Shown: positions 385 to 20,591, counted from the first letter of the stretch. The stretch: 26,546 nucleotides of DNA from Promethearchaeota archaeon (GCA_008080735.1 SHMW01000065.1:1-26546); one strand, 5' to 3'. The notes: a model not told the origin generated them from the sequence alone. Translations and numbers: made by a program.

Positions 385-846
385 TTAGATATAATATCCC
401 GTTTTATCCTCGCTCACATTATCGGTATCATCATCTTTGTCATCTCCACCTTTTCCACCGAAGAACTTTTTATAGAAATATTTGATGATATCTTCTGGAT
501 TACCATCTAAATCGAGGTCCTTCAGATCTTTTGGGTTAATCTTGATGATACCCCCTTGCTTCATCGGGATAATATTATTTTTAAATTTCTCCGCCATCTC
601 TTTCTGTTTCTTATCTCTGATACTCAGTTCTTTTTTCATAAGATCTTTCAGCTCGTTTGCGACAAGTTCATCTAATTCTTCTGGACTGAGCTCTAACAAC
701 TCCTCGGTACTAAAGGTTTTACCGATATTTCGAATAGCTCGAGTTCTTTTGTATTCGGGAATCTTATCAATCGAACTGAGACCTAGTTTTTCAAGAATAT
801 TAAGCCAATCTAATTGTACCGCCCAAATTGCGTGTTCATTTGTCAT
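385..846 (-). CDS. Hypothetical protein, helical and charged with acidic tail (153 aa)
   Basis: Natural composition and charged helical segment (EELLELSPEELDELVANELKDLMKKE). No recognised family. Confidence 0.75.
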   Translation of the reverse strand: MTNEHAIWAVQLDWLNILEKLGLSSIDKIPEYKRTRAIRNIGKTFSTEELLELSPEELDELVANELKDLMKKELSIRDKKQKEMAEKFKNNIIPMKQGGIIKINPKDLKDLDLDGNPEDIIKYFYKKFFGGKGGDDKDDDTDNVSEDKTGYYI

Positions 847-1177: not shown

Positions 1178-1414
1178 ATGAAAGAAAATATAGCTCCCGA
1201 ACCCATACCCGAGGAGATTGCGATTCAAATATGCCAACAAATACGGGAAAATAATCAACACAAACGAATTTCCTTTTCCAAAATGCAGTGTTGGGGTTGT
1301 ATGAAATTTTCCGATTTTGAAAACCGTGGAAGTTGTATCTATGGGGATCCCGAAACACTTCGTGGATGTCAATTGGTAAATAAGGTTTTTGATACCATGG
1401 AAAAAAATGAATAG
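1178..1414 (+). CDS. Small Cys-rich, putative metal-binding protein (78 aa)
   Basis: ATG start; Cys at 19, 38, 41 (CWGC), 53 and 64. Confidence 0.7.
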   Translation: MKENIAPEPIPEEIAIQICQQIRENNQHKRISFSKMQCWGCMKFSDFENRGSCIYGDPETLRGCQLVNKVFDTMEKNE

Positions 1415-1425
1415 AAAGATGGGAT

Positions 1426-1668
1426 TTATTTATTCCATCCAAAGTAGTCTGAAAGCGCATTTCCGAAATCGTTAAGCGAACGATTCTGAATTTCTCCCCA
1501 TCGAATCTCCCCGAAATGTTCTAAGATATCCGTAAAATATATTCCAAGACCTCTAAAATGCTGTTCCAAAGATTCACTATATTCTTCTATGCAATAATTA
1601 TCAATTTCCGCGCCCAGATTCTTTCCAAAATCTTGGATAAAACCAATATCAGATATAGTCATATACAA
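1426..1668 (-). CDS. Small acidic/aromatic repeat protein A (paralog of 1829-2041)
   Basis: AGGTG SD-like motif upstream; start is TTG 1668 or ATG 1662. Gapless similarity to the neighbouring ORF and an internal duplication. Confidence 0.75.
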   Translation of the reverse strand: MYMTISDIGFIQDFGKNLGAEIDNYCIEEYSESLEQHFRGLGIYFTDILEHFGEIRWGEIQNRSLNDFGNALSDYFGWNK

Positions 1669-1828
1669 ATTTACACCTTTTTTTGAATTGGATTATAATT
1701 AGTTATACATATAGTGAAACTTGACCATAAAAAAGATTCTAGCCATATCTTAAAAAAAAATTCAAGAATTAGATTTAGAAATGAAAAAGATAGGGTAAAA
1801 AGTTTTTTAAAATATTAGTTCCAGAAAC

Positions 1829-2041
1829 TCATTCCATTGAGAAATAATCTTCAAATGAATGCTCAAAATCATCTGCAACCTTGTTATCAATTTCGGCAAA
1901 ATGATATTTCCCATGGAGATGTTTCTCTTCTTTAAAAAATTCATCTAAAGAATGCTCATAATCTATTGTACATAGATTGTTTTCCTCTCCAAATCTGATA
2001 AGTCCAAATTGAGACAGGAATTCCAATTGACTTTTAGACAT
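1829..2041 (-). CDS. Small acidic/aromatic repeat protein B (paralog of 1426-1668)
   Basis: GGTGA SD-like motif upstream of the ATG; two internal copies of F[GA]Ex[ND]NxxxxD[FY]EHS[LF]xx[FY]F. Confidence 0.75.
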   Translation of the reverse strand: MSKSQLEFLSQFGLIRFGEENNLCTIDYEHSLDEFFKEEKHLHGKYHFAEIDNKVADDFEHSFEDYFSME

Positions 2042-2401
2042 TTTTCGGTTTTTTCACCATTTTTTATATTTATTCAAAAGAGTATTTAATTAAACTCTCT
2101 TTTAACAAAAAAACCATCTTGGATATTTAAATGTTTTAAGATGACTAATATTTTGATCGTTCTTGTCGGAATATATACATCTATATATTAAAAAACTACG
2201 ATTTTTACCATATTGTGCATTTATAGTGATCACTATCGGTAATTCATACTAAGCACGTAAAACGCTGCTCGAGAAGTCAAAAAGTTGCTCTAATTAATAA
2301 TTAAGATGGGCAAGTTCAAGTCTTCAAGAAGATATTAAAATATAAAATCATATCTAGATTAGAATAATTAAAGTACCAGAAAAAAATCGATATGAAATCC
2401 T

Positions 2402-3568
2402 ATGTCTTATATGATCAAATTATTGAGCAACCTCCGTGTGAAGGAATTAAAGGATATATGTAAGACCTATGATATCAGTGGGTATTCCGGTCTTAAGAAA
2501 GCGGAGCTTATTTCTCTAATAGCACGTACTTTAACGGAAAATAATATTAAAGATATTCTAGCGCAAAAAGGATTGATTGATGGGGAGATTGAAAGTATCG
2601 AAGAGATAAAACCCATCGTAAAGACTGGACGGGAAGCCGAGACACGGAAATATATCAATTATCTCTTACACTCATTAAGTGTAAAGGAACTGAAGCAGGT
2701 TTGCCGTGATTTTCAATTATCCGGGTATTCAGGGTTAAAAAAAGCGGATTTGATTGATTTTATTCTTGATTCACTCGCAGAAGAAGAATATTATAGATTC
2801 CTTCACGAGCGAGAATTAGAAATCATTGGCAATGAAATCGAAACCGCTATTGGCAAGATTCAGGGAAAGGAACGGGAAACTATTTCAGATATCAGAATTG
2901 TAAATCCAGATTTAAATGAAATCGAGATCACCTTTAAAGGATTTAACTGGGAAACCGTATCGTTTCTCTCCATAACGGAAGATAATATTTCTAATCCAGA
3001 TCGCGACTGTGATTGTAGAACGGGAGCAAATATGGGTTTTTGTAGCCATTTTTGGGTGGGATTTATTTTCTCTCTCAAGGAAGGATATTTTTCCCTCTCG
3101 GATTGGAAATTGACACGTCTTCCCGAAAATTTTGAAAGCAAAATTAACTCAATTCAGATTAAAGCGTCTCCTCAAACACAGCAAGAAGAAGAGAAGGAAC
3201 TTATCCTCATCGACAAGAGCACGGATTCTGCGAAGATAATGGAGCATTTGGATTCACGAATTACGGTATATGAAGGAGATATCGCAGAGATAGAAGAGAA
3301 AGTGTCCGAATTTCAAGATATTATGACGACCTACTATATTTTACAACTCAAAAATGTGAAATTTGGTCCACAGCTAAAGAAAAAAAGTGATTATGATGAG
3401 AGTAAGCTTAACGAGCTTGATAGACTATTCGTGAGGGTTAGTGATAATGCTTACGATAAATTGCAACCTTCAGTAGGAGATAAAATTACTCTTAATGGCA
3501 CGGTAAACAAAGATAATTTCCTTAAGATGTTTATTCTCAAGCGTGCCACAAAAATCAAAAAGCTGTAG
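2402..3568 (+). CDS. Putative nucleic-acid-binding protein: two Rho_N/HEH repeats, SWIM zinc finger, C-terminal OB-like domain
   Basis: Two copies of LxVKELKx(I/V)C(K/R)x(Y/F)x(I/L)SGYSGLKKA(E/D)LI; CxCx8CxH (CDCRTGANMGFCSH, 3008-3049); C-terminal 'LFVRV...VGDKITLNGTV' OB-like pattern. Confidence 0.75.
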   Translation: MSYMIKLLSNLRVKELKDICKTYDISGYSGLKKAELISLIARTLTENNIKDILAQKGLIDGEIESIEEIKPIVKTGREAETRKYINYLLHSLSVKELKQVCRDFQLSGYSGLKKADLIDFILDSLAEEEYYRFLHERELEIIGNEIETAIGKIQGKERETISDIRIVNPDLNEIEITFKGFNWETVSFLSITEDNISNPDRDCDCRTGANMGFCSHFWVGFIFSLKEGYFSLSDWKLTRLPENFESKINSIQIKASPQTQQEEEKELILIDKSTDSAKIMEHLDSRITVYEGDIAEIEEKVSEFQDIMTTYYILQLKNVKFGPQLKKKSDYDESKLNELDRLFVRVSDNAYDKLQPSVGDKITLNGTVNKDNFLKMFILKRATKIKKL

Positions 3569-20488: not shown

Positions 20489-20591
20489 GCCTCTGTAACT
20501 CAGCGGTAGAGTGTCTGACTTGTAATCGATGCATATTTAAGTGTCTCGAACAGCTATCAGGTTGTCGAGGGTTCAAATCCCTCCAGAGGCT
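20489..20591 (+). tRNA. tRNA-Thr(UGU) with a 31-nt intron (20525-20555) at position 37/38
   Basis: Acceptor GCCTCTG/CAGAGGC with discriminator T; D arm ACTC-AGCGGTA-GAGT; anticodon stem TCTGA/TCAGG with CT-TGT-A; T arm GAGGG-TTCAAAT-CCCTC. Mature length 72 nt; CCA not encoded. Confidence 0.93.

Follow-up and report, generated by a model that had tools for sequence, protein, structure and literature searches.

Two small genes that lie in tandem on the minus strand of a 26,546-nucleotide stretch of DNA from a Promethearchaeota archaeon (hereafter the window; GCA_008080735.1, SHMW01000065.1) encode paralogous microproteins, each with two copies of an internal repeat, and almost certainly belong to a real, conserved, lineage-restricted and unnamed protein family. 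The family is under purifying selection, is narrowly distributed and has no known relatives in the collections searched, and several of its paralogs lie beside genes for acyl-CoA-type enzymes. Our preferred explanation as a whole, which we consider plausible if somewhat short of probable, is that these are expressed, lineage-restricted, two-unit helical proteins that act as non-catalytic partners of acyl-CoA-type enzymes. The functional assignment to such enzymes derives from gene neighbourhoods and is more tentative still.

The gene pair and its family

ORF A (1426-1662, minus strand, with its TAA stop at 1426-1428) encodes 78 amino acids and is a long-linker, or A-type, member of the family. 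ORF B (1829-2041, minus strand), separated from it by 166 nt, encodes 70 amino acids with a short basic linker and represents the widespread ortholog, here termed B-type, an assignment supported by synteny at 29 loci. The start of ORF A was placed at ATG 1662 and not at the in-frame TTG 1668, since orthologs in the alignment begin with MTIS or MSIS. Both proteins are acidic (pI 4.3-4.6) and rich in aromatic residues (17% F/W/Y). At NCBI the counterpart of ORF A is a 92%-identical hypothetical protein, GF311_10600, from a 'Candidatus Lokiarchaeota archaeon' MAG, in agreement with the Asgard origin guessed in the preliminary description; it adjoins GF311_10595, a hypothetical protein that is a member of the ORF B cluster, in this related Lokiarchaeota MAG.

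The preliminary description took this tandem pair to be paralogs, and full-length comparison of ORF A with ORF B confirms that they are (BLASTP E 8e-9; shuffle z 11.2). It had also counted 12 identities over 36 ungapped residues at the N-termini. The count was correct. The ungapped alignment, with its 12 identities in 36-37 aa, has a score of 58; shuffled sequences average 20.7 (z 8.4), and 0 of 5000 reach 58. In a tree built from a short alignment, and therefore weakly resolved, ORF B falls in the widespread short-linker clade, and ORF A belongs to a distinct clade of long-linker proteins whose unit 2 has kept its own N-terminal short helix. Because the two fall in separate clades, their sequences point to old paralogs of different subfamilies that are merely tandem in the window's genus, and not to a recent or simple local duplication. 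The pair is also found in two other genomes of the same genus (G002 and G015).

Each gene is preceded by a Shine-Dalgarno-like motif, as had been noted earlier: AGGTG at 1674-1678 (minus), 11 nt 5' of the ORF A ATG, and GGTGA, read from the sequence at 2054-2058 (minus), 12 nt 5' of the ORF B ATG. Further 5' of the ORF B motif lies a TATA-like A/T-rich stretch (about 2061-2094, minus) that may serve as a promoter. Archaeal RNA polymerase terminates at T-tracts, and two T5 tracts (1784-1801, minus), 28-45 nt past the ORF B stop, constitute a candidate archaeal terminator, with a T9 tract (1752-1760, minus) beyond them; a T7 tract (1401-1407, minus), 19 nt past the ORF A stop, is a candidate terminator for that gene. 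Similar signals recur among the orthologs, most of which have (A)GGTG 8-12 nt 5' of the start (about 14 of the 20 loci shown), and a TTTATATAAA-like A/T box upstream and T-tracts downstream are also common to most of them. With its own Shine-Dalgarno-like motif, upstream box and T-tracts, the B-type gene is probably a monocistronic unit with a short leader, and in the window's genome ORF A and ORF B each appear to stand alone as monocistronic genes. A sigma-70 promoter scan was set aside because the host is an archaeon.

A conserved A/T element, ATATTTTAAAA-N-CTTTTTA, to which the T5 tracts belong, occurs at ~1796-1816 (minus) in the window, after the first T-tract of ORF B, and 25-45 nt past B-type stops across genera (L008, L009, L011, L013, L024, L028 and L030). 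It is kept in the window despite the different downstream gene there, and could either contribute to a terminator or serve as a regulatory site.

Profile searches delimit the family closely. In the GTDB family to which the window belongs, a first profile, built from ORF A, ORF B and the 92%-identical database protein, gave matches in 85 of 101 genomes, which represent 12 of 13 genera, and almost all of the matching open frames are 70-90 aa long. A second profile of 31 sequences, run against a phylum-wide genome sample, matched 57 of the 68 genomes inside that GTDB family and a single one of the 232 other genomes of the phylum; the exception (G273, on a short contig, with 7% contamination) is probably a binning artefact. 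Among 1.84 billion cluster representatives, HMMER found 59 clusters of 40-91 aa, and neither fusions nor long forms turned up at that depth. One 2395-aa match (P0045) was rejected as a long form, as it sums 11 identical weak partial matches in a protein of 100-aa repeats. ORF A and ORF B themselves match the family profile with E 3.7e-24 and 1.5e-28, respectively. Both are family members as we define them, namely proteins of 40-91 aa that match the A2/A3 profile and carry once or twice the motif [FY]-G-x-I-x-F-[GA]-E-x-[ND]-[NS] then [DE]-[FY]-x-x-[SA]-[LF]-x-x-[YF]-[FL]. Further subfamilies exist, and the number of copies per genome reaches 3-4.

A word-index protein search with ORF A returned only the 92%-identical protein, the index being too coarse for the family. 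Weak profile matches (E 0.01-0.1) in ~788-aa proteins, in ~370-aa AAA ATPases and at the C-terminus of an alpha/beta hydrolase were judged to reflect chance or composition over short stretches.

For the 119 ortholog pairs in which dS was not saturated, dN/dS has a median of 0.22, so the small-protein family first proposed from two sequences has both homologs and purifying selection behind it. Short open reading frames in AT-rich DNA (31% GC) might be suspected of being spurious or non-coding, but the chance of this is negligible here: the protein-level conservation across genera and the low dN/dS refute it, as do the genome counts and library clusters given above, and the region has no Rfam match and both ORFs are called as genes by NCBI.

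The preliminary description had recognised no known domain in either protein, and database searches bear this out. Neither ORF A nor ORF B matches any Pfam or NCBIfam family at E<=10, and 31 members scanned singly against Pfam gave only scattered and inconsistent matches, with at most three members per family. No PDB sequence matched below E 0.3, no ESM Atlas cluster scored above 0.81, which is noise level, and the searchable literature yielded no account of the family. The family is new at the protein-family level, in that no described family, solved structure or searchable paper matches it.

The repeat unit and its predicted fold

The four repeat copies reported in the preliminary description are well founded. 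In ORF A the unit 1 core spans 1555-1629 (residues 12-36) and the unit 2 core 1441-1515 (residues 50-74), and in ORF B the corresponding cores span 1934-2008 (residues 12-36) and 1841-1915 (residues 43-67), all on the minus strand. Shuffle tests and hhalign identify all four, and AlphaFold2 helices coincide with unit 2 of ORF A and with both units of ORF B (helices 25-37 and 54-68). When each protein was split in two and the halves were compared in six combinations with 5000 shuffles each, the weakest comparison (A1/A2) gave z 4.9 and was reached by 7 of 5000 shuffles; the other five gave z 6.4-9.3 and were reached by none. Across 110-115 members, the profile of repeat 1 aligns with that of repeat 2 over 26 columns with a probability of 98.7% and E 2.2e-16 (hhalign).

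Some details of the unit needed revision. Its length, put earlier at ~25 aa, is about 30-35 aa once a short N-terminal helix is included; this helix is retained before the unit 2 core of ORF A (residues ~43-49), so that the second unit there is complete, and is lost from unit 2 of ORF B. The G, E, N and final F described as invariant are so among the four copies of the window, but over 85 diverse members only the unit-1 Gly and the Glu of both units are conserved at 90% or more. The Cys reported as conserved in the first repeat did not survive wider comparison, as the family has S, P, A and other residues at that position. In the widespread form, the unit 1 consensus reads M-S-x3-P-E-Y-L-K-x-F-G-E-I-K-F-A-E-E-N-S-x4-D-F-E-x-S-L-K-K-H-F and is followed by a basic linker and the unit 2 consensus G-R-Y-K-F-A-E-I-N-N-x4-D-F-E-x-S-F-x-x-Y-F-E. 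Across the family the linker between units varies in both length and sequence.

Proteins with just one unit, 40-59 aa long, are known from genus g8, from genome G025 and from the library representatives. Because they occur, the unit can be regarded as an autonomous module, and their existence suggests that a single unit can function without duplication, perhaps as a dimer. Loci with single-unit genes of about 46-53 aa (L050:1039-1197, L051:936-1118 and L079:1871-2029 in genus g8; L076:3019-3192) are unrelated to the SAP/SWIM gene block described below.

Structure prediction gives a tentative picture of this unit. For ORF B (31 sequences) the AlphaFold2 model has pLDDT 58.5 and pTM 0.31, with helices at 25-37 and 54-68 only; for ORF A (85 sequences) it has pLDDT 68.4 and pTM 0.33, with helices at 7-10, 23-39, 46-52, 56-59 and 61-74. 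At this low confidence, the models suggest a helix-loop-helix that occurs twice, with an uncertain mutual arrangement. Searches with a low-confidence model (pTM 0.33) returned no Foldseek match in the PDB at E<=10, and a best VIA-align 2 score against 48,161 chains of Z 3.1, which is below noise level. A predicted complex of two ORF B copies scored 0.00, the fold of the partners being itself uncertain, and this score speaks neither for nor against a dimer.

Low AlphaFold2 confidence, together with conserved G/E loops modelled without regular structure, could also indicate a bivalent short-linear-motif protein, mostly disordered when alone, whose units fold on a partner and bridge two copies of a target that need not be an acyl-CoA enzyme. 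The single-unit versions and the variability of the inter-unit linker are consistent with such a protein. However, disordered proteins do not usually have an F/W/Y content this high or so regular an amphipathic pattern, the conserved region extends over the whole unit and is not limited to a short core, and low pLDDT is expected anyway from a shallow, lineage-restricted alignment. We give this alternative an appreciable but clearly minor share of the probability.

A folded two-unit protein has possible structural parallels. Small four-helix bundles built from helical hairpins include ROP-type dimers and duplicated single-chain forms, and the family resembles these in size and in its predicted helix-loop-helix repeated twice; the coexistence of one-unit and two-unit versions is also what would be expected if two hairpins form one bundle. 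It differs from ROP-type proteins in that it gave no sequence match or model-based structural match, its tertiary arrangement being predicted at low confidence (pTM 0.33), and in its long loop of about 10-12 residues, which is the best-conserved part of the unit (G, E, N). EF-hand pairs of the calbindin-D9k kind likewise place two helix-loop-helix units in ~70 aa, and the family loop G-x-I-x-x-x-E resembles positions 6, 8 and 12 of the EF loop. In the 12-residue EF loop, however, positions 1, 3 and 5 carry Asp/Asn/Ser ligands and the Glu at position 12 begins the exiting helix, whereas the family loop has the hydrophobic or basic residues Y/L, K and F at positions 1, 3 and 5 and its Glu is not where the helix starts; no EF-hand family matched in Pfam at E<=10, and none appeared among the VIA or Foldseek results.

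Genomic neighbourhoods of the B-type genes and their paralogs

The neighbourhood of the B-type gene was read at 30 loci. In 23 of these, spread over many genera, it adjoins a divergent gene for a SAP/Rho_N and SWIM-like protein (window 2402-3568, plus), and a gene for a 153-aa protein (window 385-846, minus) closes the block at 24. An Abhydrolase_1 gene lies 170-220 bp 3' of the B-type gene on the same strand at 22 loci, and a TetR-family gene is divergently upstream of it at 7. Given this gap and the promoter- and terminator-like signals of the B-type gene itself, co-transcription with the hydrolase is not indicated. In the window's genus the hydrolase is gone from the locus, its ortholog lying on another contig (G000:C10:68178-69026), and its place is taken by ORF A and a convergent 78-aa CxxC ORF. 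Two genomes of the same genus (G037 and G043) have no small genes at the locus, where the SAP/SWIM gene directly adjoins the 153-aa gene, which indicates that the small genes are dispensable.

The linkage of the B-type gene to this block in so many genera raises an alternative in which its function is tied to the SAP/SWIM protein or the 153-aa neighbour, for example as a small acidic protein that modulates one that binds nucleic acids, with the enzyme neighbours of other family members being incidental insertions at a permissive locus. Yet the SAP/SWIM gene stays beside the 153-aa gene in G037 and G043, where the small gene is absent, and is present in genera g3 and g4, where the family was not found; moreover, paralogs of the small gene occupy other loci that have no SAP/SWIM neighbour. 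A functional tie of this kind seems unlikely to us, and the linkage is probably just inherited gene order.

Several features of this block are worth recording in their own right. The SAP/SWIM protein of the window has two Rho_N/SAP repeats and a SWIM-like CxC...CxH, and its gene is found in all of the 13 genera sampled. Most orthologs begin without the ~75 N-terminal residues and have one SAP repeat fewer, and in several genomes (for example G016:C15, G007:C104 and G023:C29) the module also lies inside frames of 1200-1600 aa. The 153-aa protein belongs to no Pfam family and has an acidic tail followed by E-D-(K/N/R)-T-G-(Y/I)-Y-I, with the T-G-(Y/I)-Y-I C-terminus the same in all eight complete orthologs read. 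This hydrophobic-Tyr-X end presumably resembles the HbYX motif, through which proteasome activators attach to the 20S alpha ring. The 78-aa CxxC...C...C ORF convergent with ORF A (window 1178-1414, plus) has no Pfam match and has relatives at the same position in L018, L028 and L029. At another locus an intact B-type gene is followed, 150 nt downstream, by a chimeric frame (L067:910-1149, G078:C53) that joins the N-terminus of the alpha/beta hydrolase (to its HGFP...W motif) to unit 2 of the microprotein; this frame was probably left behind by a deletion or a recombination. Elsewhere in the window, an Rfam tRNA match at 20489-20591 (plus) spans 103 nt although the model has 71 positions, and so may mark a tRNA gene with an intron.

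Paralogs at other loci have a different setting. Members of a C-type subfamily lie about 30-35 nt downstream of a ~350-aa gene, or overlap it, at 14 of 14 loci in two genera (L052-L056, L058, L060, L062-L065, L073, L075 and L077; genera g2 and g11). At all five of these 14 loci that were scanned with Pfam, the ~350-aa gene belongs to the NMO family (PF03060), that of the FabK enoyl reductase, and the C-type locus with its upstream NMO gene looks like an operon. C-type loci also have a divergent enoyl-CoA hydratase gene and, close by, genes for 2-oxoacid:ferredoxin oxidoreductase; the gene after the microprotein, which in this subfamily is diverged, encodes a DUF166 or TIR-domain protein. Other members of the family follow a pair of MaoC and FAS1-type hot-dog dehydratase genes (L057), lie between NMO and thiolase genes (L061) or follow an SDR gene (L078). 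Several locus types have unrelated neighbours, including genes for ribosomal proteins, MFS transporters and a methyltransferase.

The background frequency of such enzyme genes was estimated by tblastn with one query for each of six enzyme families, in the window's genome only, which contains 43 of them, with 1.9% of positions within 500 bp of one. Acyl-CoA enzyme neighbours occur at about 5 of about 11 locus types (rough binomial P about 1e-4 to 1e-3), so the placement appears far above chance, although this is a rough estimate for which the background was undercounted and the locus types are not fully independent. The link to acyl-CoA-type enzymes, which the preliminary description did not make, derives from these related loci only: neither ORF A nor ORF B adjoins an acyl-CoA enzyme gene in the window, and the NMO paralogs of the window's genome have no family member downstream. 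One of these three paralogs (G000:C47:10324-11370, minus), whose search alignment reads through a single in-frame TGA, immediately follows a gene resembling those for AMP-dependent acyl-CoA synthetases.

FabK-type NMO enzymes use ACP substrates in bacteria, and one subfamily of these ~70-80-aa, acidic, predicted helical proteins lies directly downstream of an NMO/FabK-family gene. The small size, the repeated units and the mostly conserved Ser in D-F-E-x-S-L would suit either a phosphopantetheinylated ACP analogue or, as the preliminary description had suggested, a multi-core, RiPP-like peptide precursor. Both readings are very unlikely. ACP (PF00550) has no internal repeat and is marked by an invariant Ser in D-S-L at the start of helix II and a cognate transferase, whereas the Ser of the family lies inside a predicted helix and not at its N-terminus, can be A, G, C, W or Y instead, and is missing from both units in some members. 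The proteins gave no match to the PP-binding domain, and the window's own genome (93% completeness) gave no match to this domain or to the ACPS-family transferases (PF01648). The carrier is disfavoured because its Ser is not invariant and neither of these domains was found in the genome. A RiPP precursor is disfavoured because no radical-SAM, YcaO, lanthipeptide-type or other modification gene and no export gene is present in the conserved neighbourhood, which consists of the SAP/SWIM protein, the alpha/beta hydrolase, the 153-aa protein and TetR, and because conservation is uniform over the full length, with no split between leader and core.

The neighbourhood of acyl-CoA-type enzyme genes would fit a helical bundle that binds lipid or acyl-CoA ligands, similar in action to acyl-CoA-binding protein (ACBP, PF00887) and unrelated to it by descent. 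At about 8-9 kDa, the family proteins are similar in size and predicted helical content to ACBP, a ~10-kDa helical protein, and share its aromatics and its acyl-CoA metabolic context; in addition, the window's own genome was searched for an ACBP domain and yielded none. However, ACBP binds CoA phosphates via Lys/Tyr (PMC7057175), whereas the conserved polar residues of the family are Glu, Asn and Asp and the charged ones among them are acidic. The proteins have no PF00887 match, their repeat architecture is absent from ACBP, and their low-confidence model gave no structural match to ACBP or to any other solved fold. We consider a ligand-binding role quite unlikely, less so than a carrier or precursor.

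Proposed role and significance

In our preferred reading, ORF A and ORF B would be expressed genes, and each protein represents a tandem duplication of a unit of ~30-35 residues that is predicted to run from a short helix through a Gly/Glu-containing loop to an amphipathic helix. The two units may pack their aromatic faces together into a small helical bundle, and single-unit relatives could reach an equal arrangement by dimerising. Because the family proteins have no catalytic or cofactor-binding signature, and because paralogs at different places lie repeatedly beside acyl-CoA/fatty-acid-type genes, we infer a non-catalytic role in which the protein works as an accessory subunit, adaptor or modulator of acyl-CoA/fatty-acid-type enzymes. 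Its two equivalent acidic/aromatic modules would then provide two equivalent binding surfaces.

There is a precedent for such a role in archaea. DUF35, a ~130-aa zinc-ribbon and OB-fold protein, is a small non-catalytic scaffold of the archaeal thiolase/HMG-CoA synthase complex and is encoded beside acyl-CoA enzymes, so that it shows how a small non-catalytic archaeal protein can hold together acyl-CoA enzymes encoded next to it. The likeness does not extend to homology: the microproteins lack any Cys/His pattern, and their predicted structure is helical.

A bolder form of this proposal, to which we assign a low probability, is that the family is an Asgard-lineage bivalent helical adaptor, with a fold unseen among solved structures, that assembles or regulates enzymes of a beta-oxidation-like or ACP-independent fatty-acid pathway (NMO-type enoyl reductase, MaoC/ECH hydratases, thiolase, SDR and hydrolase). 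If true, it would be comparable to a scaffold or an acyl-handling protein in an organism whose genome yielded neither ACP nor ACP synthase nor ACBP.

The practical importance of the family is moderate until a partner is shown, because its function is a matter of inference, it is dispensable in close relatives of the window's organism, and orphan microproteins are common. Its biological interest lies in being conserved, under selection, multi-paralogous and confined almost wholly to one family of Lokiarchaeia (Asgard archaea). It offers a natural example of a fold derived from a duplicated ~30-residue unit in which one-unit and two-unit forms coexist, which makes it attractive for structural and fold-evolution studies. 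If the link to acyl-CoA metabolism is true, the family would represent a lineage-specific accessory layer on Asgard fatty-acid-type metabolism, and Asgard lipid and fatty-acid biochemistry is relevant to eukaryogenesis.
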